Shown here in pieces: positions 3,378 to 63,871 of a DNA stretch of 64,000 nucleotides. The stretch lies in assembly GCA_944381315.1 (NCBI GenBank), contig CALWKR010000027.1, positions 16,353-80,352 of the forward strand, in the 5' to 3' direction. How positions within the stretch are numbered: the stretch's first letter is position 1; each line of letters opens with the position of its first letter. The notes under the pieces are model-generated. The model saw only the letters and a list, made by a program, of their open reading frames with translations, made no database searches and was not told where the DNA came from. A program made the translations under genes and the position numbers. The DNA is from an uncultured Christensenellaceae bacterium (GTDB taxonomy: Bacteria; Bacillota; Clostridia; Christensenellales; UBA3700).

Positions 3378-3454
3378 GGTCGGCGTCTGTATTTCTGTTT
3401 TAATGAATAATAATTGAAATACATTGATAATAATTGGCGAAAGGAGAATGAACG

Positions 3455-4189
3455 GTGACGGAGGAATTTGAAGGAAGAGTTTTCGGGCTGGCGAGCGCGG
3501 ACGGCATAGACTGCAAAGTCTGCGAGCTGCTGTTTGACAGCGGCGCGGCTTTCGTCGGCTTTTCGGACATAAGCTCCGTGCGTGAAAATCAAGGATATCC
3601 GTACTGTATCACCGTGGCGTTCCGTCTTTTTGACGGCATTTTGAGAGGCATCGACGGTGCGCCGACATATCAATATTTTCACCATTACCGCACCGTGAAC
3701 GCCGCGCTCGACAACATGACTTTGCGCGCAGCCGCATACTTGAATTCCAAAGGCTTTGACAGCGTCTGCATTCCCGCAAGTCAATCGTCGGACTCAGATC
3801 CTTTTCGCGGAGCGTTTCCTCACAAGACGGGCGCAAGATCGTGCGGCGCAGGATATATAGGCAAAAACGCGCTGTTTGTCAGCCGCGATCACGGCAGCAA
3901 GGTGCGCTTGGCAAGCATATTGACGGACAAGCACTTCGATCTTTCCGGAGAGCTGTGCGACGAGGATTGCGGGGAGTGCGAGATCTGCAAGAAGGCTTGC
4001 CCTGCCGGCGCGATCTTCGGAGTGAACTATTCCGAAGGGATGCAAGTCGGGGACTTGGTCGACGTCGCCAAGTGCAGCGCGCATATGAAGGCCGCCTACA
4101 AGAACATCGGGCGAGGAGCCGTCTGCGGCATATGTATCGCCGAGTGTCCGAAGAACGGGCTTAGGAAAGGCAAAGGCTCTTCCGTATGA
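3455..4189 (+). CDS. QueG-like 4Fe-4S dicluster protein (short epoxyqueuosine-reductase-like family)
   Basis: GTG start after AAAGGAG. C-terminal CxxCxxCxxxCP (CGECEICKKACP) and CGICIAECP ferredoxin motifs. The N-terminal region resembles the QueG/RdhA-like fold. At 244 aa it is shorter than canonical QueG. Confidence 0.65.
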   Translation: MTEEFEGRVFGLASADGIDCKVCELLFDSGAAFVGFSDISSVRENQGYPYCITVAFRLFDGILRGIDGAPTYQYFHHYRTVNAALDNMTLRAAAYLNSKGFDSVCIPASQSSDSDPFRGAFPHKTGARSCGAGYIGKNALFVSRDHGSKVRLASILTDKHFDLSGELCDEDCGECEICKKACPAGAIFGVNYSEGMQVGDLVDVAKCSAHMKAAYKNIGRGAVCGICIAECPKNGLRKGKGSSV

Positions 4190-4255: not shown

Positions 4256-4549
4256 GCCGAGATGTATCTGCGGCGATCGTGAGGCAGCGGCGGCAACAAG
4301 GTCGAGCCGTCGACTATGCGGCTTGCGGCGCAGGAGAGATCGGGTGATTTTCGGATGTTAGAAAATTGATAATAATTGATACTAATGTATAGTAATTGAT
4401 ACTAATTGATTCGCGAACACCACAAGGAAAATTGTGTAAAGAGGGGCGCAAAATTTCGTCAATATTTTGCAAAATCTGTGGTAGATTACTTGTTTTTAAT
4501 CAAAAATAATGTTATCATATAGTTACGGCAAAAGCCGCGGAGGCAAATT

Positions 4550-4975
4550 ATGATAGAAGACGATATTTCCGAATTGATGTTGAGGATAGAGGCTTTGGAG
4601 AGCAGACTCGACAAGTTGGAGACGCTGGTCGAGAAGCGCGTCGCCGAAGCGCCGCCCCAACCGCGTCAGGTCAAGACGAGAGAGAAGCAGCCGGTCTATG
4701 AGATCGGCATCAAGGGCAAATATCGCTTTTTGGCAGACTTTCTGCACGAGCACGGCGGAGACACGATCACGCTTTCGTTCGAGCAGATCGAGAGCCTTGT
4801 CGGAGACAAGCTGCCGCCGTCGGCATACAACTACCGCGCTTATTGGAGCAACACCGACACGCACACGATCTCGCGCGCATGGATGAAGGCAGGCTATATG
4901 ACCACCTACGTCAACCTGCTTGCCAAGAAGGTGACTTTCGAGAAGAGGCGCAGTTACGATTCCGCTTCCAAGTGA
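4550..4975 (+). CDS. Hypothetical protein (N-terminal coiled coil, conserved-looking C-terminal domain)
   Basis: 141 aa. SD GGAGG is 8 nt upstream, and the gene has its own promoter and terminator. The motif GKYRFLADFLHEHGGDTITLSFEQIESLVGDKLPPSAYNYRAYWSN looks like a conserved small domain. I cannot name the family. Confidence 0.6.
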   Translation: MIEDDISELMLRIEALESRLDKLETLVEKRVAEAPPQPRQVKTREKQPVYEIGIKGKYRFLADFLHEHGGDTITLSFEQIESLVGDKLPPSAYNYRAYWSNTDTHTISRAWMKAGYMTTYVNLLAKKVTFEKRRSYDSASK

Positions 4976-4989
4976 GATATAGACATCAA

Positions 4990-5017
4990 GGCTCGGCAGA
5001 TCGCCGAGCCTTTTTTT
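4990..5017 (+). terminator. Rho-independent terminator
   Basis: GGCTCGGC (4990-4997) / GCCGAGCC (5003-5010), followed by T7 at 5011-5017. Confidence 0.85.
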
Positions 5018-5094
5018 GCGTTATGTTTTCAAGACAGCATCGCAAATCACGGCGTGTCTGCCAATGACTCGCCGTTTTTTTGTTTGCAAGACAT

Positions 5095-5505
5095 GCGCAA
5101 AGCAATATTGTCGATAGTATCGTCGCATAGCTTTGTGAGTTGCATGATAAGATCAAAGCAATTGCGGTCGACGGCTGTTGATCTACTATCGTTCGACAGG
5201 CGAAGTCGCAAAGACGCGCACAAGGAACGACGCGCTCAAAGCAAATATTGGCGATAGTGCCGTCGCATGATCGTGCGTCGAATGACGCGGCAAAGCGGTT
5301 GCGATCGAGACTGTCGACGAGCTATCGTCGGATAGGAGCTGTCACAAAGTTGCGCGGAGGAACGACCGGCTCAAAGCCATTGTTGCAGACAGTCGCCGCC
5401 GCATGACGTGCGGCGTACGATACGCCCAAATCGGATATGATCGACAGTTGCTCGTCGCATGTTTGTCGATCGATATGCGCAATGCAAGCAGGTCGAGCAG
5501 AGCGT
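5095..5505. repeat. Three degenerate tandem repeats, period about 135-139 bp, non-coding
   Basis: Units start near 5095, 5232 and 5367. Each opens with GC(G)C(T)CAAAGC and contains CGATAGT..CGTCGCAT. Units 1 and 2 both end in GGAACGAC (ends at 5231 and 5366). Unit 3 is more diverged. The period is not a multiple of 3, and no convincing ORF is present. Confidence 0.7.
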
Positions 5506-5556
5506 AGTGAGTTCCGTCGGATACGACGCCGACTCGATCTAATGCGGCAAAATCGC

Positions 5557-5595
5557 AAAAAAATACAGCGTTCGCGAGCGAACGCTGTGTTTTTG
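5557..5595. terminator. Bidirectional rho-independent terminator (serves glyQS)
   Basis: A-run at 5557-5564, stem ACAGCGTTCG (5565-5574) / CGAACGCTGT (5579-5588), T-run at 5590-5594. Confidence 0.85.
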
Positions 5596-5603
5596 CAATA
5601 TAC

Positions 5604-6992
5604 TCAATATTCCAATGCGTTGGAGAGATAGGCGTCGAGCTCGCCGATCGGGATGCGGATCTGCGACATCGTGTCGCGCTCGCGGACGGTGATCGTGCCG
5701 TTCTCGACCGTCTCGAAGTCGACGGTGACGCAATAGGGCGTGCCGATCTCGTCTTGGCGGCGATAGCGCTTGCCTATGCTGCCCGTCTCGTCGTATGTGG
5801 CGGAGAACTTCGTTGCCAGATCGCGATAGATCTTCTCTGCCTCTTCGCCGAGCGCTTTCTTTTGGAGCGGCAGCACGGCGACTTTGTAAGGAGCGATCGC
5901 GGGGTGCAGATGCATGACCACGCGCGAGTCGCCGTCTTCGAGCTCTTCTTCCTCATAGGCGTTGCACAGCAGTGCGAGCACCATTCTCTCGACGCCGAGC
6001 GAGGGCTCGATGACGTAGGGGACATATCTCTCGTTGGTAGCCGGATCGAGGTAGTCCAAGTTCTTGCCGCTGGTCTTCATATGCGCTTTGAGGTCGTAGT
6101 CGGTGCGGTCCGCGACGCCCCACAGCTCGCCCCAGCCGAACGGGAATTTGAATTCGAAGTCGGTCGTCGCGTTGGAATAGAAGGCAAGCTCTTCGGGATC
6201 GTGGTCGCGGAGCTTGAGGTTTTCCTCTTTTATGCCAAGGCCGAGCAGCCACTCTTTGCAGAAGTTCTTCCAATAGTTGAACCATTCCAAGTCGGTGCCG
6301 GGCTTGCAGAAGAATTCGAGCTCCATCTGTTCGAACTCACGGACGCGGAAGATGAAGTTGCCGGGCGTGATCTCGTTGCGGAAGCTCTTGCCGATCTGTC
6401 CGATGCCGAAGGGCACTTTGAGCCTCGAAGTGCGCTGCACGTTGAGGAAGTTGACGAAGATGCCTTGCGCGGTCTCGGGGCGCAGATAGAGGGTGCTGAC
6501 CGTGTCTTCGGTCACGCCCTGGAAGGTCTTGAACATCAAGTTGAATTGTCTCACGCCGGTGAAGTCGCTCTTGCCGCAGACGGGGCAGGGGATCTTGTGG
6601 TCGGCGATGTACTTTTCCATCTTCGCGTTGTCCCAACCGGCGATGCTCTCTTCGATGCCTTTGCGGCGCATATAGTCTTCGATGAGGTCGTCGGCGCGGT
6701 GACGGGATTTGCAATTCTTGCAATCCATAAGCGGATCGGAGAAGCCTCCGACGTGTCCGCTCGCCACCCATACGTTGGGGTTCATCAAGATCGCGCAGTC
6801 GACGCCCGTGTTGAGAGGATTCTCTTGCACGAATTTCTTCCACCAGGCGCGCTTGACGTTGTTTTTGAGCTCCACGCCCAACGGGCCGTAGTCCCAAGTG
6901 TTGGCGAGACCGCCGTAGATCTCGCTGCCGGGGAAGATGAAACCTCTGCTCTTGCAGAGGGCTACCAATTTGTCCATTGTCAGTTGTGCCAT
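5604..6992 (-). CDS. glyQS: Glycine--tRNA ligase (alpha2 homodimeric type)
   Basis: 462 aa. [45 protein letters not shown]... is an unmistakable GlyQS N-terminus. SD GAAGGAAG upstream. Confidence 0.97.
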
Positions 6993-7162
6993 ATGTACTT
7001 CCTTCGCGCTGTGTGCGCGGCATTGTCAAATCGTATAAATGATTATAAGTTGTTTGGCGGCGATTGTCAATTGATTTGGTCATCAGGAACACTTTGCGCG
7101 CGTTTTGCGTATTGTGAATTAGCAAGGGCGTGAAAACGCCCAATCATACGGGAGGTCTCAAT

Positions 7163-7327
7163 ATGAACAATTTCAACGAATGCGGATTTGGCGGCAACGA
7201 TTGCCTCTGGATCATCTTGCTCATGCTCTGCTGCGGAGGGTGCAAGGGCGGCTGCGGCTGCAACAACATCATCCCCGTGCTCGTCGCTCTGAGCTGCTGC
7301 GGCGGCAGCGATTGCGGCTGCAAATAA
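7163..7327 (+). CDS. Cys/Gly-rich 54-aa micro-protein with two short hydrophobic segments
   Basis: GGAGG at 7151-7155, 7 nt before ATG 7163. Sequence: MNNFNECGFGGNDCLWIILLMLCCGGCKGGCGCNNIIPVLVALSCCGGSDCGCK (11 Cys, 11 Gly). A terminator hairpin follows. Confidence 0.65.
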   Translation: MNNFNECGFGGNDCLWIILLMLCCGGCKGGCGCNNIIPVLVALSCCGGSDCGCK

Positions 7328-7355
7328 TACATACCGCAGGGCGGATCAGCCGATG

Positions 7356-7386
7356 GCGGCAAGGCTCGACGCTTTGCCGCTTTTTC
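7356..7386 (+). terminator. Rho-independent terminator
   Basis: GCGGCAAG (7356-7363) pairs with CTTTGCCGC (7372-7380), followed by T5 at 7381-7385. Confidence 0.65.
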
Positions 7387-7397
7387 GCGCCCGTCAA

Positions 7398-7426
7398 TTG
7401 ACAGGAGCGCCGCGCGGTGGTATCAT
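7398..7426 (+). promoter_or_regulatory. Promoter giving a probable leaderless mRNA
   Basis: TTGACA (7398-7403), 17-nt spacer, TATCAT (7421-7426). Only 6 nt (AGAGCT) separate it from ATG 7433, and there is no SD. Confidence 0.6.
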
Positions 7427-7432
7427 AGAGCT

Positions 7433-7705
7433 ATGAAAAAGTACAACTTCGTCACTTGGTGGCTCGATCTCGATCCCAAACCGCTGCCGTACAAGATCTG
7501 GAAGATGATCATCACTCCGATCATGTTCATCGCCTGGGTCACGTTCGTGGCGGTCTATCCCGATCAATATTGGACCTTTACGCTGTGCGCGGTGCTGCCC
7601 GTGGCGATCGTCGACACGGCGTGGGAAGCGTTCAATTTCCGCAATTATCGCAAAAAGCTCGCGGATAGCGGCGAGGCAGGCAAGGACGACGAAGGAGCGC
7701 GCTGA
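7433..7705 (+). CDS. Small membrane protein, hypothetical
   Basis: 90 aa. Two predicted TM helices (MIITPIMFIAWVTFVAV, FTLCAVLPVAIV) and a charged C-terminal tail. Confidence 0.6.
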   Translation: MKKYNFVTWWLDLDPKPLPYKIWKMIITPIMFIAWVTFVAVYPDQYWTFTLCAVLPVAIVDTAWEAFNFRNYRKKLADSGEAGKDDEGAR

Positions 7706-7748
7706 GCGCTTCTTTTTTTGCGCGCAAAGCCAATGTGTGCTTAATCGG

Positions 7749-7777: not shown

Positions 7778-7864
7778 ATTCAAAACGGCGATAGCTATAC
7801 GCGTCGCACGCGCATTATCATTACGACTTGATGGGTATTGCTCCGCAAGCTCAAGCGAGGGAAT

Positions 7865-17512: not shown

Positions 17513-17609
17513 AGCGGCAGAGTAAATACGATGCGTTAAGTGTTGAGGGATGGGATGTCGCCCTCAAACGAAAAGCGAAAGCTTGCGGTATCGTGTTGCG
17601 TCCGCTGCG
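17513..17609 (+). promoter_or_regulatory. THF (tetrahydrofolate) riboswitch, folT motif
   Basis: AGCGGCAGAGUAAAUACGAUGCGUUAAGUGUUGAGGGAUGGGAUGUCGCCCUCAAACGAAAAGCGAAAGCUUGCGGUAUCGUGUUGCGUCCGCUGC. The conserved core (AGAGUA, GCGUUAAGUG, AUGGGAUGUCG, AACGAA, GCGGU, UCCGCU) matches my recollection of the THF-I aptamer. The helices co-vary (UUGAGGG/CCCUCAA, ACGAU/AUCGU). It sits upstream of an ECF S component. Confidence 0.88.
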
Positions 17610-20299: not shown

Positions 20300-20337
20300 T
20301 TGTAACGCTTGACTTTACAACGTTCGAGCGCTATAAT
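20300..20337 (+). promoter_or_regulatory. rrf2 promoter with an overlapping inverted-repeat operator
   Basis: TTGTAA (20300-20305), N9, TTACAA (20315-20320). The repeat spans the -35 TTGACT (20309-20314). The -10 TATAAT lies at 20332-20337. Confidence 0.65.
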
Positions 20338-20356
20338 AGCGGCGAACGGAGGAAAG

Positions 20357-20779
20357 ATGCAGATCTCGTCAAGACTAACGATCGCCACTCACATCTTGTT
20401 GGCGATAGAATATTTCAAGGACAAGTGCAAGACCACGTCCGACTTTCTCGCTTCGAGCGTGCACGTCAATCCCGTGGTCATACGCAGGATATTGCTTCAA
20501 CTGCGCGACGCAGGAATGATCGAGGTCGCGCGCGGCAGCGGCGGCGCGTCGCTCAAAGTCGATCCTTCGCAGATCACTATGCTGGACGTCTATCGAGCAG
20601 TCGACTGTGTGGAGAAGAAGGGCTTGTTCCACTTCCACGAGTCGCCTGATCGCAACTGCCCCGTCGGCAGACGCATCCATGACGTGCTCGACGGCAGGCT
20701 TCAAGCGGCGCAGGCGGCGATGGAGCATTCTCTCGCGTCGACCACGCTCGCGGAACTGCTTGCGGAATTGAAGGACTGA
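20357..20779 (+). CDS. Rrf2 family transcriptional regulator
   Basis: MQISSRLTIATHILLAIEYF...SSVHVNPVVIRRILLQLRDAGMIEVARGSGGASL is the Rrf2 wHTH signature. Only one Cys-containing stretch (CPVG) is seen, so cluster ligation is uncertain. Confidence 0.88.
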   Translation: MQISSRLTIATHILLAIEYFKDKCKTTSDFLASSVHVNPVVIRRILLQLRDAGMIEVARGSGGASLKVDPSQITMLDVYRAVDCVEKKGLFHFHESPDRNCPVGRRIHDVLDGRLQAAQAAMEHSLASTTLAELLAELKD

Positions 20780-20812
20780 GGCGCTTTGCGGCATAGGAAT
20801 TGCGCCCTTGTT

Positions 20813-20837
20813 CGCGGCCGAGCGCCGCGATTTTTTT
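20813..20837 (+). terminator. Rho-independent terminator (copy 1)
   Basis: CGCGGC / GCCGCG stem followed by T7 at 20831-20837. Confidence 0.7.
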
Positions 20838-20907
20838 GCGTTCGCGGAATTGCTTGCCGAGTTGAAAGAGACCGAGGAGCTTTGCGGCATAGGGATCGCG
20901 TTTCGTT

Positions 20908-20932
20908 CGCGGCCGAGCGCCGCGATTTTTTT
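20908..20932 (+). terminator. Rho-independent terminator (copy 2)
   Basis: Identical CGCGGCCGAGCGCCGCG hairpin followed by T7 at 20926-20932. Confidence 0.7.
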
Positions 20933-20958
20933 GCAGAAAAAATTTTTCGAAAAAATTT

Positions 20959-22110: not shown

Positions 22111-22917
22111 ATGACCCAGCGACAGAGAAGAGAATATTTGATTGCGGCGCTGCTTGCCGAAGATCCGCGCTTTCGCGGCATAAAGACGCCCGAAAGCGAC
22201 GATGAAGCAAAGCAATTGCTGAGAGCGCTGTTCAACGTCAGAGCTCCGCGTCCCGTCGACGCGGAATTTTTGTGTATCCAGGACGAATATCTCAGGGCGG
22301 AGACAGAGGCAAAGGGCATCGTCTCGATCGACGATCTGACGCCTGTCGGAGAGAGGATATATCTGTGGCAGGGAGACATCACGCGGCTAAAATGCGACGC
22401 GATCGTCAATGCCGCCAACTCGCAAATGCTGGGATGTTTTGTCCCGTGTCACGGCTGCATAGACAACGCCATACACACATATGCCGGAGTGCAGCTGAGA
22501 GCAGAATGCGCAAAGATCATGCGCGAGCAAGGGCATGAAGAGCCGACGGGCCGAGCCAAGATCACCGCTGCATACGATCTGCCGTGCAGATATGTGCTGC
22601 ACACCGTAGGCCCGATCGTGAGAGGCAGAGCGCCGAGCAAGCGCGACTGCGAGCTGCTTGCGTCGTGTTATCGCTCATGTTTGGAGCTCGCGCAAGAGGA
22701 AGGTTTGCACAGCATAGCGTTTTGTTGCATTTCAACGGGGGAGTTCGGTTTTCCCAACGAGGCGGCGGCGAGGATCGCCGTCGACACCGTCAGCGATTTT
22801 GTTGCCGCCGATGACAGCGGCATGGAGGTGATCTTCGATGTTTACAAAGACAGGGACGCTCAGATCTACTCCTCAATATTGGGAGCAGACGCAGAGAGTG
22901 CGCAACGCGATCGATGA
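22111..22917 (+). CDS. Macrodomain protein (protein ADP-ribose hydrolase, sirtuin-linked type)
   Basis: WQGDITRLKCDAIVNAANSQMLGCFVPCHGCIDNAIHTYAGVQLR...HTVGP...AFCCISTGEFGFP. This is the macro signature with a Cys/His-containing insertion. Confidence 0.85.
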   Translation: MTQRQRREYLIAALLAEDPRFRGIKTPESDDEAKQLLRALFNVRAPRPVDAEFLCIQDEYLRAETEAKGIVSIDDLTPVGERIYLWQGDITRLKCDAIVNAANSQMLGCFVPCHGCIDNAIHTYAGVQLRAECAKIMREQGHEEPTGRAKITAAYDLPCRYVLHTVGPIVRGRAPSKRDCELLASCYRSCLELAQEEGLHSIAFCCISTGEFGFPNEAAARIAVDTVSDFVAADDSGMEVIFDVYKDRDAQIYSSILGADAESAQRDR

Positions 22918-28657: not shown

Positions 28658-28740
28658 GACGATAGTGTGGCACGCTGCGGCGGATCTATCCGCTGCGATC
28701 ACTTGCGGCGATATGCGTCTTTGTTCATTGATTTTTTCGG

Positions 28741-28856
28741 CATATGAGCGAATGCGCAGACGTGTGCGCGCACATATGCCGATATGGACATATGGCGAGA
28801 CGCCGACGGAGCGTTTGCGCATATGCGCTTGCCGTCATTGAAAAGCGGAGCATATG
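28741..28856. repeat. Cluster of five CATATG hexamers in a divergent intergenic region
   Basis: CATATG at 28741, 28773, 28789, 28820 and 28851, plus a GATATG at 28781. The palindrome TGTGCGCGCACA lies at 28762-28773. Confidence 0.6.
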
Positions 28857-28938
28857 TCCGTGCGAGTATTTTGCGTAATTATTCCGAGCCTTTGAGAATA
28901 TCGTATAGAGAGATCGCGGTTCGGACGCCGCAATTGAG

Positions 28939-29202
28939 GTGGAGATGGAAGAGATGACGACGCGCGCCCGTGAAGAGGCGCGCTACATATCGGAGACAGG
29001 GTGTACGCTGAGAGCTTGCGCCGCCGTGTTCGGAGTCGGCAAAAGCACCGTGCATACCGACGTGACCAAGCGGCTCAAAGACGTCGATCCCGTGCTGTAC
29101 GCCCAAGTCGAGCAGGTGCTGGGAGCCAATCTTGCGGACAGACATCTGCGCGGAGGGCGCAGTACAAAGCTCAAATATCTGAGAGAGAAAAAACAGAGTT
29201 AA
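28939..29202 (+). CDS. spoIIID: Sporulation transcriptional regulator SpoIIID
   Basis: ...ISETGCTLRACAAVFGVGKSTVHTDVTKRLKDVDPVLYAQVEQVL...RHLRGGRSTKLKY matches the SpoIIID HTH and basic tail. The start is ambiguous (GTG 28939, ATG 28945 or ATG 28954). Confidence 0.9.
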   Translation: MEMEEMTTRAREEARYISETGCTLRACAAVFGVGKSTVHTDVTKRLKDVDPVLYAQVEQVLGANLADRHLRGGRSTKLKYLREKKQS

Positions 29203-29221
29203 CGAACACGGGTACCAAAAA

Positions 29222-54731: not shown

Positions 54732-55961
54732 ATGGCTGACAACAAGATAAAGAAAGTCGTATTGGCATATTCGGGCGGCTTGGACACGTCCATCATCATC
54801 CCGTGGCTCAAAGAGAACTATGACGGCTGCGAGGTCATCGCCGTCGCAGGCAACGTCGGACAGGGCAAGGAGCTCAAGGGCCTTGAAGAAAAGGCGATCA
54901 AGACGGGCGCCAGCAAGCTCTATATCGCCGATCTGACCGACGAGTTCGTCGACGACTACGTCTTCCCCACGCTCAAAGCGGGCGCCGTCTATGAGGGCAA
55001 ATATTTGCTGGGCACCAGCTTTGCGCGCCCCGTCATCGCCAAGAAGATCGTCGAGATCGCGCTCAAAGAGGGCGCGGACGCGATCTGCCACGGCTGCACG
55101 GGCAAGGGCAACGACCAAGTGCGTTTCGAGCTGACGATCAAGGCGTTTGCGCCCAATATGAAGATCATCGCGCCGTGGCGTATTTGGGATCTCAAATCGC
55201 GTGACGAAGAGATCGACTACGCCGAGGCTCACAACGTCCCCCTCGCGATCAGCAGGGAGACCAATTACAGCAAGGACAAGAACTTGTGGCACCTCTCGCA
55301 CGAGGGCTTGGATCTCGAAGATCCCGCCAACGAGCCCGATTATGACAAGATCTTGGAGCTCGGAGTCAGCCCCGAGAAGGCGCCCGACGTGCCGACTTAT
55401 GTCACGATCTCGTTCGAGAAGGGCGTGCCCGTCGCCGTCGACGGCGTCAAGATGAAGGGCAGCGACATCGTTGCCAAACTCAACGAGCTTGGTGGAGCCA
55501 ACGGCATCGGCATCGTCGATATCGTCGAGAATCGTCTTGTCGGAATGAAGTCGCGCGGCGTCTATGAGACCCCCGGCGGCACCATCCTCTATCACGCTCA
55601 CGACGTCTTGGAGACTCTGTGCCTTGACAAGGAGACGATGCACTTCAAGCAGCACGTCGCCGTCAAGTTCGCAGATCTCGTCTACAATGGTCAGTGGTTC
55701 ACGCCGCTGCGCGAGGCGCTCTCCGCGTTCGTGGACAGCACCCAGCAGACCGTGACCGGCGACGTCAAGCTCAAGCTCTACAAGGGCAACATCATCAACG
55801 CCGGCGTCAAGTCCCCGTATTCGCTCTATGACGAGGACATCGCGACTTTTGCAGAGGACGACGTCTACGATCAAAAGGACAGCGCAGGCTTCATCAACCT
55901 GTTCGGATTGCCGATCAAGGTACAGGCGATGATGAAACAGCGCAACAAGGACAACAAATAA
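54732..55961 (+). CDS. argG: Argininosuccinate synthase
   Basis: [20 protein letters not shown]...[13 protein letters not shown].... Confidence 0.97.
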
Positions 55962-57352
55962 TGGCAAAACTCTGGAAGGGCAGATTTTCCAAAGAGCTCG
56001 ACGAGCGAGTCAACGACTTCAACAGCTCGATCTCTTTTGACAGCGCGATGTTCCGCGAGGACATCACGGGCAGCATCGCCCATGTGATGATGCTCGGCAA
56101 GCAGGGGATCGTCACTCAGGACGAGGCGGCGAAGATAGCCAAAGAGCTCGCCGCGATCTCGGACGACATCGAGGACGGCAAGCTCGCGATCGATCCCGAG
56201 GCGGAAGACATCCATATGTTCGTCGAAGAGGAGCTGACCAAGCGCCTCGGCGATCTCGGCAAAAAACTGCACACCGCAAGGTCTCGCAACGACCAAGTCG
56301 CCGTCGATCTCAGGATCTTTTTGCGCAAGCGCATCGACGAGATCGTCGGCATGCTGCGCAAGCTGATCGCGACGCTCGTCTCGATCGCGGAAAAGAACTT
56401 GCACACCGTCATGCCCGGCTACACGCATCTCCAACGCGCTCAGCCGATCACTCTCGCGCATCACATGATGGCGTATGTCGAGATGTTCAAGCGCGACATG
56501 ACGAGGATGTTCAACTGCTTCCGACTGCTCAACGAGTGTCCTCTCGGCAGCGGCGCTCTCGCGACGACGACCTATCCGATAGACAGAGAATACACGGCGA
56601 AGATGCTCGGTTTCGACGCGCCGTGTTCCAACAGTCTGGACGGCGTCTCCGACCGCGACTATTGCGTGGAATTCTGTGCGGCGGCGGCATTGACGATGGT
56701 GCATCTTTCGCGACTTTCCGAAGAGATCGTCGCGTGGTGCAGCTGGGAGTTCAAGTTTGTGGAGCTGGACGACGCATACGCGACGGGCAGCAGCATAATG
56801 CCGCAAAAGAAGAATCCCGACATCTGCGAGCTCATACGCGGCAAGACGGGCAGAGAGATCGGCGATCTCACGACGATGCTGACGATGCTCAAAGGCTTGC
56901 CTCTCGCCTACAACAAGGATATGCAGGAGGACAAGGAGGCGGTATTTGACAGCGTCAAAACGCTCAAACAATGCCTGTCTATCATCGTCCCCATGCTCGA
57001 AACGGCGCGTTTCAACAAGGAGAACATGCTCGCGGCAGGCAAGCGCGGATTCATCAACGCGACCGACTGCGCCGACTATCTGGTCAAGAAGGGTATGCCT
57101 TTCCGCGACGCCTACGGCGTTGTCGGCAGACTTGTCGCCAAGTGCGTGCAAAAGGGCGCGACGCTCGACGAGCTGTCCTTGGACGACTATCGCGCGGAGA
57201 GCGAGTTGTTCGACGAGGACGTCTACAAGGCGATAGACTTGATCGAGTGCGTCAAAGGACGCAAAGCGATCGGCGGCCCCGCCCCGGAAGCGGTGCAAAA
57301 ACACATAGACAAGATCAAAGAGACAGTGCTCAAAGATTGGAGCGAACAATGA
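55961..57352 (+). CDS. argH: Argininosuccinate lyase
   Basis: [27 protein letters not shown]...GSSIMPQKKNPD.... Confidence 0.97.
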   Translation: MAKLWKGRFSKELDERVNDFNSSISFDSAMFREDITGSIAHVMMLGKQGIVTQDEAAKIAKELAAISDDIEDGKLAIDPEAEDIHMFVEEELTKRLGDLGKKLHTARSRNDQVAVDLRIFLRKRIDEIVGMLRKLIATLVSIAEKNLHTVMPGYTHLQRAQPITLAHHMMAYVEMFKRDMTRMFNCFRLLNECPLGSGALATTTYPIDREYTAKMLGFDAPCSNSLDGVSDRDYCVEFCAAAALTMVHLSRLSEEIVAWCSWEFKFVELDDAYATGSSIMPQKKNPDICELIRGKTGREIGDLTTMLTMLKGLPLAYNKDMQEDKEAVFDSVKTLKQCLSIIVPMLETARFNKENMLAAGKRGFINATDCADYLVKKGMPFRDAYGVVGRLVAKCVQKGATLDELSLDDYRAESELFDEDVYKAIDLIECVKGRKAIGGPAPEAVQKHIDKIKETVLKDWSEQ

Positions 57353-58380
57353 TAAAAGCAGGAATAGTCGGAGCGACCGGCTATGCCGGCGCAGAGCTTG
57401 CGAGGTTGCTTTGCACGCATCCCGAGGCTTGCGTCGCCGCCGTGTCGTCCGTATCTTTTGAGGGCAAAAAGCTCAGCGACGTCTATCCCAATCTGTACGG
57501 GATCTGCGACCTCGTGCTCGGCAACGAGGACGATGTGATCGCGGCGAGCGACGTCGTGTTCACCTCGCTGCCCCACGGGCTCAGCGAGGCTTTGGCAGGC
57601 AAGTGCGTCGATCAGGGCAAAAAGATCATCGATCTCGGCGCAGACTTCCGTCTCGACAGCGAAGAGGACTATGCCAAGTGGTACGGCAAGTCCTATACGC
57701 GCCCCGATCTGCACGCCAAGGCGCTCTATTGCATCCCCGAACTGCATCGTTCGCTCTATCGCGGACAGCCGATCATAGGCAATCCGGGATGCTATCCGAC
57801 CTCGGTCGCGCTCGGCGCGGCGCCGCTGCTCAAAGCCGGCGTTGCGGAGAGCGACATCGTCGTCGACAGCAAGTCGGGCGTGACGGGTTCGGGCAGAGGA
57901 CTGTCCGACACCACGCATTATCCCAACTGCAACGAGGCGTTTTCGGCATACAAAGCCGCCGCGCACAGGCATACGCCCGAGATGGAGCAGACGCTCTCGG
58001 CGCTCGCAGGCGAGCCGATCATGGTGACTTTCGTGCCGCATCTGCTGCCCGTCAACAGAGGGATAGAGACGACGATGTACGCCAAGCTGACCGCGCCATG
58101 CACGGCGGAGGAATTGCACAAGTTGTACGTCGACTTCTACAAGGACGAAAAATTCGTGCGCGTGCTGCCTCTCGGCGTCGCCGCCAACATCCGCGACGTC
58201 AGGATGTCCAATTATTGCAACATCGGCGTCTTTGTCGACGAGCACGCAGGCAAGGCGGTGATCACGAGCGCGATAGACAACATGGTCAAGGGGGCTGCCG
58301 GTCAGGCGATCCAGAACATGAATCTCATGTTCGGCAAAAAGGAGGACTGCGGATTGGACTTCGTTCCGCCCGCGTTTTGA
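57349..58380 (+). CDS. argC: N-acetyl-gamma-glutamyl-phosphate reductase
   Basis: ATG 57349 overlaps the argH stop (ATGA). MIKAGIVGATGYAGAELARLL...GNPGCYPTS.... Confidence 0.96.
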   Translation: MIKAGIVGATGYAGAELARLLCTHPEACVAAVSSVSFEGKKLSDVYPNLYGICDLVLGNEDDVIAASDVVFTSLPHGLSEALAGKCVDQGKKIIDLGADFRLDSEEDYAKWYGKSYTRPDLHAKALYCIPELHRSLYRGQPIIGNPGCYPTSVALGAAPLLKAGVAESDIVVDSKSGVTGSGRGLSDTTHYPNCNEAFSAYKAAAHRHTPEMEQTLSALAGEPIMVTFVPHLLPVNRGIETTMYAKLTAPCTAEELHKLYVDFYKDEKFVRVLPLGVAANIRDVRMSNYCNIGVFVDEHAGKAVITSAIDNMVKGAAGQAIQNMNLMFGKKEDCGLDFVPPAF

Positions 58381-59597: not shown

Positions 59598-60446
59598 ATG
59601 GATATCGCAAGCAAGGCGCGCGTTCTCAGCGACGCGCTTCCGTACATCAAAAAATATAGCGGCAAAGTCGTCGTCATCAAGTATGGCGGCAACGCGATGC
59701 TGTCCGACGAGCTCAAACACGCCGTGATGAGCGACATCGTCATGCTGTCGCTGATCGGCGTCAAAGTCGTGCTCGTGCACGGCGGCGGACCCGAGATCTC
59801 GGAGATGCTGCGCCGCGTGGGAAAGACGACTCAATTCATCGGAGGCTTGCGCTATACGGACAAGGAGACTGCCGAGATCGTCCAAATGGTGCTCGCAGGC
59901 AAGATCAACAAAAATCTCGTGATGATGCTCGGCGAGAGCGGCGGCAAAGCGCTCGGACTGTCCGGCATTGACGGCGGCATGCTCAAATGCGAAAAGCACA
60001 AAGAGACCGACCTCGGCTTTGTCGGCGACATAGTCGACGTGGACGCGGCTCCGATCGTCGATGCGCTCGACGGCGGCTATATCCCCGTCGTCGCGACCGT
60101 GGGCACGGACGGCGACGGCAACGTCTACAACATCAACGCCGACACCGCGGCGGCGAGGATAGCCGCTGAGATGAATGCGGAGAACCTCTTCTTGATGACG
60201 GACATCCGCGGACTGCTGCGCGACAAGGACGACGAGAGCACGCTCATCCCCGAAGTCTACGTCTCCGACGTCCCTTCGCTCAAAAAGAAGGGCATCATCG
60301 GCGGCGGAATGATTCCCAAGGTAGATTGCTGCGTCGAGGCGGTGCGCCGCGGCGTGAAACAGTCGATCATCATCGACGGCAGGATCAAACACTCGATCTT
60401 GATCGAGATGCTCACCAGCGAAGGCGTGGGCACGTTATTCAAGTGA
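59598..60446 (+). CDS. argB: Acetylglutamate kinase
   Basis: Start at ATG 59598 (MDIASKARVLSDALPYIKKYSGKVVVIKYGGNAM...VHGGGP...). Confidence 0.96.
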   Translation: MDIASKARVLSDALPYIKKYSGKVVVIKYGGNAMLSDELKHAVMSDIVMLSLIGVKVVLVHGGGPEISEMLRRVGKTTQFIGGLRYTDKETAEIVQMVLAGKINKNLVMMLGESGGKALGLSGIDGGMLKCEKHKETDLGFVGDIVDVDAAPIVDALDGGYIPVVATVGTDGDGNVYNINADTAAARIAAEMNAENLFLMTDIRGLLRDKDDESTLIPEVYVSDVPSLKKKGIIGGGMIPKVDCCVEAVRRGVKQSIIIDGRIKHSILIEMLTSEGVGTLFK

Positions 60447-63765: not shown

Positions 63766-63871
63766 GAGTGCCGTGCGCGACTGACGGTTTTACATAGGTC
63801 ACTATGGTGGAGTGTGCGGAGTATGAGTCGACCGTCTGGGCACAAAATAAACAATGCCGAGGCGGTATTTT
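63766..63871 (+). promoter_or_regulatory. ZTP riboswitch (pfl motif) with terminator expression platform
   Basis: P1 is CCGUGCG (63771-63777) / UGUGCGG (63813-63819). CGACUGACGG lies at 63778-63787. P2 is CAUAG/CUAUG (63793-63806). GUGGAG lies at 63807-63812. The 3' box CGACCGUCUGGGCA lies at 63829-63842. The pseudoknot GACGG (63783-63787) / CCGUC (63832-63836) carries a compensatory change relative to the usual GGCG/CGCC. The competing terminator pairs ACCGUCUGGGC (63831-63841) with GCCGAGGCGGU (63856-63866), followed by AUUUU. Confidence 0.72.

Follow-up and report, generated by a model that had tools for sequence, protein, structure and literature searches.

We analyzed a non-coding spacer that carries a degenerate tandem array in a 64,000-nt stretch of the genome of an uncultured Christensenellaceae bacterium (assembly GCA_944381315.1, contig CALWKR010000027.1, positions 16,353 to 80,352 of the forward strand), hereafter referred to as the window. 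Coordinates are counted from its first nucleotide. The spacer occupies the 628 bp between the stop codons of two convergent genes, one encoding a protein of the DUF7662 family (stop codon at 4975) and the other a glycyl-tRNA synthetase (GlyRS; stop codon at 5604). An earlier note, made from the DNA letters without database searches, had described three degenerate tandem repeats between clean terminators of the two genes and had seen in them a hint of a repeated RNA hairpin. A terminator scan recovered the terminator of each flanking gene. The features of the locus are collected in Table 1.

For alignment, we took 5092-5230 as unit 1, 5231-5366 as unit 2, and 5367-5510 as unit 3. The alignments confirmed all three units and their head-to-tail arrangement. 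Units 1 and 2 are 71% identical over the whole unit, with a local score of 70 compared to 16.7±2.4 for dinucleotide shuffles (z=22). The similarity between units 2 and 3 is limited to the first ~78 nt (z=11), and units 1 and 3 align with z=2.9. Comparison of the region with itself by blastn returned a 139-bp shift at 71% identity (E=1.6e-18). The earlier note was prepared to give up the repeat if its similarity proved no better than that of shuffled sequence, and the similarity we found is far above shuffles. Tandem Repeats Finder reported nothing on 4500-6200, even at a score threshold of 30. The copies are too degenerate for this tool, which misses copies less than ~70% alike, and its silence is a limit of the tool and no evidence against the repeat.

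By cutting the region at the CAAAG lattice and comparing all pieces pairwise, we resolved the internal anatomy of the units. The basic module is ~55 bp long and opens with CAAAGC, with a sublattice of ~27 bp. Units 1 and 2 each contain an A, a B, and a short C module (C1 is 27 bp), and the corresponding modules resemble each other (A1/A2, z=15; B1/B2, z=10; C1/C2, z=4.4). Unit 3, which had been described as a more decayed copy, is homologous to the others (A2/A3, z=16). Its composition is A-A-A, not that of a simple decayed A-B-C unit: A4 matches A2 with z=6.5, the decayed A5 matches A1 with z=4.8, and an A-module profile recovers all five A copies.

The composite motif CAAAGC..RTTG..GAYAGT..CGYCGCAT occurs exactly three times in the 64-kb window, each time in the array, and not once in 100 shuffles. 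Among the shorter strings, CGATAGT is present at 5112 and 5252, as previously noted, as is the unit-end string GGAACGAC at 5224 and 5359. CTATCGT lies at 5186 and 5322, and ACTATCG is present at 5185, one base off the position first assigned to it. The 10 CAAAG-type motifs (at 5043, 5098, 5154, 5209, 5237, 5291, 5345, 5372, 5427, and 5480) follow each other with the regularity claimed for them, at spacings of 55, 56, 55, 28, 54, 54, 27, 55, and 53 bp. A further similarity, reported at 7787-7808 as weak and possibly due to chance, does exist as a string but is no more than chance would give: across the window there are 11 copies of GGCGATAG and 16 of CGTCGCA, and nothing at this site was picked up by the profile search.

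Terminators enclose the array on both sides, with two on the + strand on the left and one bidirectional terminator on the right. The second left-hand terminator (T2), absent from the earlier description, stands in tandem with the first (T1) downstream of the DUF7662 gene. In the window, T2 has one stem mismatch at 5055 (a T/A polymorphism). The stem is perfect in 5/7 same-species contigs, and in contig L001 the terminator scan returned a 10-bp stem followed by a T-run. We consider the terminator at the GlyRS 3′ end (T3) bidirectional because an A-run precedes its 10-bp stem (5565-5588) and a T-run follows it. The sequences immediately after T1 and T2, which we term junction modules T1j and T2j, are also related to each other (z=4.8-5.4; 2/1000 shuffles equal that score). 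Both also resemble the junctions between modules, and T2j matches the A1/B1, C1/A2, and A4/A5 junctions with z=5.4-6.1. Because modules, units, and junctions are all homologous, we regard essentially the whole spacer from the first terminator to ~5527 as a hierarchy of tandem duplications.

At 7700-7740, we noticed that GCGCGCAAAGCCAATGTGTG follows a terminator T-run and looks like the start of an A module (profile E=0.62). This likeness is probably due to chance or to a compositional effect of terminator flanks.

The exact DUF7662 protein is encoded on 17 metagenome contigs. The spacer is spanned in seven of these (L001-L005, L007, and L008), at 98.2-100% identity and with three units in each. 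Copy-number polymorphism, a property of variable-number tandem repeats (VNTRs), was not found among the eight same-species sequences (these seven contigs and the window), and with its copy number invariant, the array is better regarded as a fixed fossil than as an active VNTR.

Sister lineages (L091-L100) have the same gene order and match the window at 83-88% identity in the DUF7662 protein and 80-85% in the flanking DNA. None of their spacers between these two genes aligns with the one studied here, and among the sister-lineage spacers themselves the DUF7662 terminator hairpin is the sole alignable part. GCAAA is enriched in these spacers (14 observed vs 2.3 expected). As its complement TTTGC is equally enriched (16 vs 3.1), we attribute the excess to composition or terminator flanks rather than to a strand-specific site. 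In more distant relatives (L101-L103; 62% identity), the order DUF7662, long spacer with or without a methyltransferase gene, and GlyRS is kept, and the spacers, one of them 650 bp long, are unrelated and repeat-free. The array was found at none of 80 GlyRS loci from GTDB species. The earlier note had named absence or lack of conservation in close relatives among the observations that would count against its reading, and absence is what we observed in the sister lineages, the distant relatives, and the 80 GlyRS loci.

We also searched more widely for the array. Unit and A-module profiles (nhmmer) detected no other copy in the window and none in the sister-lineage loci or the 80 GTDB GlyRS loci. 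A DNA pattern scan of the viral collection gave 0 matches. In the Joint Genome Institute (JGI) metagenome collection, a strict pattern gave 0 matches and a looser pattern gave 120 single matches, which we ascribe to chance because only the pattern stretch itself matches. There was no blastn match in the plasmid and phage collections. Judging from these searches, the array is restricted to one species.

Some relatives carry a gene for a 247-251-aa S-adenosylmethionine-dependent methyltransferase between DUF7662 and GlyRS (L095, 3534-4277; L098, 2293-3048; L101, 4043-4786). The gene is absent from this window and from L091-L094. Its presence in both sister lineages and distant relatives suggests that it is probably ancestral and was lost here. 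The DUF7662-GlyRS site is a hotspot of gene loss and spacer turnover.

The region is non-coding, as proposed: the period (136-139 bp) is not divisible by 3, indels distinguish the units, and the open reading frames (ORFs) are short. Two of these, 5054-5257 (+) and 5047-5223 (−), are unlikely to be real genes because a 1-base indel at 5129, present in 5/7 same-species contigs, lies inside both. The array also decays evenly. Units 1 and 2 differ at positions scattered evenly over their length (permutation p=0.33), and the most similar 35-nt window of the two is no outlier that would mark a conserved core (p=0.33). Within the species, the spacer has diverged by 1.4-1.8%, compared to 0.2-1.8% for the flanking genes, and thus varies at least as much as they do. 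Four of the six polymorphisms in the repeat fall in the best-conserved A1 core, where CAAAGC becomes CAAAGA, GATAGT becomes GTTAGT, and one base is deleted. In these patterns we see no apparent sign of purifying selection on the array.

We hypothesize that the array arose by lineage-specific, multi-step tandem duplication and is now decaying neutrally, an explanation to which we assign a probability of about 70%. The spacer between these convergent housekeeping genes would be fast-evolving and is probably untranscribed. A ~55-bp module opening with (G)C-CAAAGC, related to the sequence after the DUF7662 terminator, would have been copied in tandem. The resulting A-B-C block (136-139 bp) would then have been duplicated to give units 1 and 2, with A-type modules copied again to give unit 3. 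Once amplification had ended, the copies would have diverged by point mutations and small indels, leaving units 1 and 2 ~29% apart. The route may have been replication slippage or unequal recombination. We infer this mechanism and its order, the terminator-adjacent origin, and a lack of function; most likely the array has no sequence-specific function and at most serves as passive spacing between terminators. The CAAAG lattice and the shared inverted repeats would be inherited from the duplicated module and are therefore no independent evidence of function.

The window contains a younger parallel. At 20748-20934, a tandem duplication of 95 bp in two copies (86% matches) has copied the terminator (TCGCGGC CGAGC GCCGCGA T7) of the gene at 20309-20779 along with the final ~30 nt of that gene. 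Like the array, whose + strand terminators and following sequences are also duplicates, it is a tandem duplication beside an intrinsic terminator. Unlike the array, it has a single period, and its copies include a coding 3′ end.

Several observations weigh against neutral decay of a duplicated spacer. On the + strand, the RNAalifold consensus of the three units has an energy of −20.5 kcal/mol compared to −14.1±3.0 for column-shuffled alignments (z=−2.1; 11/500 shuffles), three of its predicted pairs are changed on both sides, and the two C-to-T polymorphisms of unit 2 would be accommodated as G·U pairs in that unit's predicted + fold. All eight copies of the locus have three units, with no visible instability. 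The seven CAAAG motifs within 540 bp are the highest density in the window, and the strand-specific lattice (7 on + vs 1 on −) is striking; common descent of the modules explains most of this density. The fold and the strand bias could instead reflect a species-specific noncoding RNA (ncRNA) of ~0.5 kb, transcribed on the + strand from just after T2 (~5083) to the bidirectional terminator (5594), which could end such a transcript. Its ~55-nt modules would each display CAAAGC or a small hairpin, making it a protein sponge of the CsrB/RsmZ kind or a tandem small RNA. In the consensus fold, 90.8% of predicted pair cells are paired, and the minus strand gives a weaker z=−1.2. The CGATAGT/ACTATCG helix, which had been taken as a hint of a repeated hairpin, can form in all three units (39/42 cells pair, and unit 3 contributes one compensatory change). 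We could not substantiate this hairpin: the helix score is reached by 89/500 column shuffles, RNAalifold pairs CGATAGT with a partner other than ACTATCG, and an A-to-T change at 5114 in 5/7 same-species contigs breaks the helix in unit 1. The consensus folding and covariation rest on three independent sequences, with a covariation term of ~0 and a consensus energy only ~0.44 of the mean single-unit energy (−20.5 vs ~−46 kcal/mol). Single units fold no better than shuffles on either strand (z −1.6 to +0.1), and for the whole region minus its terminator z is −2.0 (+ strand) and −1.55 (− strand), a weak signal that is not strand-specific given the similarity of the two values. Moreover, Rfam has no family for 5083-5555: allowing E up to 10 brought up noise and terminators only. 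A promoter scan of 4400-6000 found no site on the + strand; its single weak prediction falls in unit 1 on the minus strand. In most strains, CAAAGC and the helix of unit 1 are lost to polymorphisms, and every sister lineage lacks the array. The array shares with CsrB/RsmZ sponge RNAs a short motif repeated along a few hundred nt and differs from them in having no GGA-in-loop motifs, promoter, Rfam match, or conservation beyond one species. We consider such an RNA unlikely. That it is also of recent de novo origin, a modular + strand RNA of ~0.5 kb born by terminator-adjacent tandem duplication and serving, for instance, to sequester an RNA-binding protein, is decidedly improbable; in that case the array would offer a rare view of how a modular ncRNA is born de novo.

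The motif lattice, with its regular ~27/55-bp spacing, also invites an explanation at the DNA level, in which an iteron-, centromere-, or nucleoid-protein-like array is bound cooperatively, possibly by the DUF7662 protein. The array adjoins a small gene of unknown function with clade-wide synteny, and that gene is itself preceded by a separate 10-bp repeat, 4.7 copies of AATTGATACT. However, a regular lattice follows automatically from tandem module duplication, and the spacings of 27.3 and 55 bp (2.6 and 5.2 turns) are out of helical phase. Modules are 65-88% identical, no dyad symmetry is conserved between copies, and inspection of the A core by eye on both strands for a promoter or dyad-symmetric operator yielded nothing consistent across copies. 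The polymorphisms strike the motif itself, and relatives with the DUF7662 gene have no such array. There is no rep, par, integrase, or transposase gene in the neighborhood, and we rejected an iteron or a sopC- or parC-like centromere array on the basis of the degenerate modules, the lack of a nearby rep/par gene, and the unmatched plasmid collection. A protein-binding array is accordingly a very improbable explanation. A modular A-B-C layout near terminators between convergent genes recalls BOX and BIME elements, raising the question of whether the array is one locus of a dispersed family (BOX, STAR, REP/BIME, or MITE-like) with its other copies outside the window; our search of the species' own genome covered the 64-kb window, which we estimate at ~2-3% of a typical genome. 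Pneumococcal BOX and enterobacterial REP/BIME elements are likewise modular short intergenic repeats near gene 3′ ends and terminators, but such families number tens to hundreds of dispersed copies, which fold into stable hairpins or are bound by IHF or gyrase. Here, no second locus was found in the collections searched by profile, pattern, or blastn, apart from the single chance matches, the fold is not significant, and there are neither terminal inverted repeats nor a target-site duplication. We regard membership in a dispersed family as less probable again. Finally, the spacer might preserve a gene remnant, for example of the methyltransferase gene that sister lineages carry here and that this species has probably lost, or a degenerate orphan CRISPR array. 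A search of the spacer with both methyltransferase proteins (tblastn) gave only noise, scattered over both strands (best E 0.26), so we rejected a methyltransferase pseudogene; a unit length that is no multiple of 3 and the indels between units also argue against a coding origin. The ~35-nt conserved core followed by a ~20-nt variable stretch every ~55 bp is superficially CRISPR-like. CRISPR arrays are expected to have near-identical repeats of 23-47 bp and unique spacers of similar length, whereas here identity among the cores is no higher than 65-88% and the would-be spacers of different units are homologous to each other. We saw no cas gene in the 11 kb downstream of the array or in the 5 kb that the window covers upstream, and we agree with the earlier note that this is no CRISPR array. 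Both versions of this explanation are scarcely credible and already largely refuted.

As the probable product of tandem duplication and neutral decay, the array is best likened to a fossil bacterial minisatellite with higher-order repeat structure. It has in common with intergenic minisatellites and VNTRs, such as the mycobacterial interspersed repetitive units (MIRUs), direct head-to-tail repeats of tens to ~140 bp in a non-coding spacer and, on our hypothesis, an origin by slippage or unequal recombination and no required product. Unlike VNTRs and MIRUs, its copies are ~71% identical, do not vary in number among the eight sequences, and belong to no known dispersed family. The nesting of a ~55-bp module, with its ~27-bp sublattice, in a duplicated 136-139-bp A-B-C unit is reminiscent of the higher-order repeats of satellite DNA. 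It differs from satellite DNA in comprising three higher-order units only, in lying on a bacterial chromosome, and in showing no evidence of homogenization by concerted evolution.

The array matters little in itself. It illustrates the turnover of an intergenic spacer in which a methyltransferase gene was probably lost and the space refilled by tandem duplications, now decaying, of a sequence that resembles the stretch beside a terminator. It is also useful as a negative control for structured-RNA or regulatory-array scans: tandem duplication by itself produces regular motif spacing and shared inverted repeats, and these should not be taken as a sign of function.

Table 1. Features of the DUF7662-GlyRS spacer and its surroundings, and spacers at the same site in sister lineages
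Feature	Position	Strand	Details
DUF7662 gene, upstream flank	4550-4975	+	141 aa; Pfam PF24698, E=2e-19
Intrinsic terminator T1 of DUF7662 gene	4988-5017	+	10-bp stem (4988-5012), 5-nt loop, T-run
Post-terminator junction module T1j	5013-5052	+	TTATGTTTTCAAGACAGCATCGCAAATCA; homologous to T2j
Second intrinsic terminator T2	5050-5081	+	CGGCG[T/A]GTC TGCCAAT GACTCGCCG T7
Post-terminator junction module T2j	5076-5110	+	TTTTGTTTGCAAGACATGCGCAAAGCAAT; runs into unit 1; resembles inter-module junctions
Tandem unit 1	5092-5230	+	A1 5091-5146, B1 5147-5201, C1 5202-5229
Tandem unit 2	5231-5366	+	A2 5230-5283, B2 5284-5337, C2 5338-5364
Tandem unit 3	5367-5527	+	A3 5365-5419, A4 5420-5472, decayed A5 5473-5527
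Terminator T3 at GlyRS 3′ end	5559-5594	both	17-nt inverted repeat; A-run before, T-run after
Class II aminoacyl-tRNA synthetase, GlyRS glyQS type	5604-6992	−	462 aa; Pfam tRNA-synt_2b + HGTP_anticodon
THF riboswitch	17516-17609	+	80.7 bits
ZMP/ZTP riboswitch	63767-63848	+	50.5 bits
Sister spacer, L091-L094			230 bp
Sister spacer, L099 and L100			516 bp
Sister spacer, L098			611 bp + methyltransferase gene
Sister spacer, L095-L097			108 bp + same methyltransferase gene as L098

The annotated neighbors of the array are housekeeping-type genes or genes of unknown function. They are annotated as cation efflux, acetyltransferase, Fer4, DUF7662, GlyRS, a weak match to a thiamine transporter family (the ECF-S gene of the earlier note), CoaX, homoserine dehydrogenase, UvrB, and UvrA. 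For DUF7662, PADLOC and a literature search were both empty. Lookup of the exact GlyRS protein sequence found no record. GlyRS relatives in GTDB species genomes assign the window to uncultured gut Clostridia of the Christensenellales type; the best match among them shares 85% protein identity, and a GlyRS_ins_1 domain is present in GlyRS orthologues. T-box leaders are common on Firmicutes glyQS genes; in the 440 bp upstream of this glyQS (6993-7432), Rfam gave no T-box match even at E up to 10.

At gathering thresholds, the only Rfam matches in the whole window are the two riboswitches of Table 1, both outside the array. With a crude gene call (ORFs of 90 aa or more), further inter-ORF gaps of 548-1120 bp lie at 54751-55870, 57350-58324, 59765-60438, 22216-22837, and 28674-29221, none with a tRNA gene or with an Rfam family that reaches its gathering score.

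Two short tandem repeats lie upstream of neighboring genes. The AATTGATACT repeat (4364-4410; 81% matches) sits in an AT-rich 360-bp gap (GC 0.36-0.39) just upstream of the DUF7662 gene; its period matches one turn of the helix, which gives it the look of an operator or a bent promoter. Another 10-bp repeat, ATAATAATTG, is present in three copies at 3407-3436, directly upstream of the Fer4-domain gene (3455-4189).

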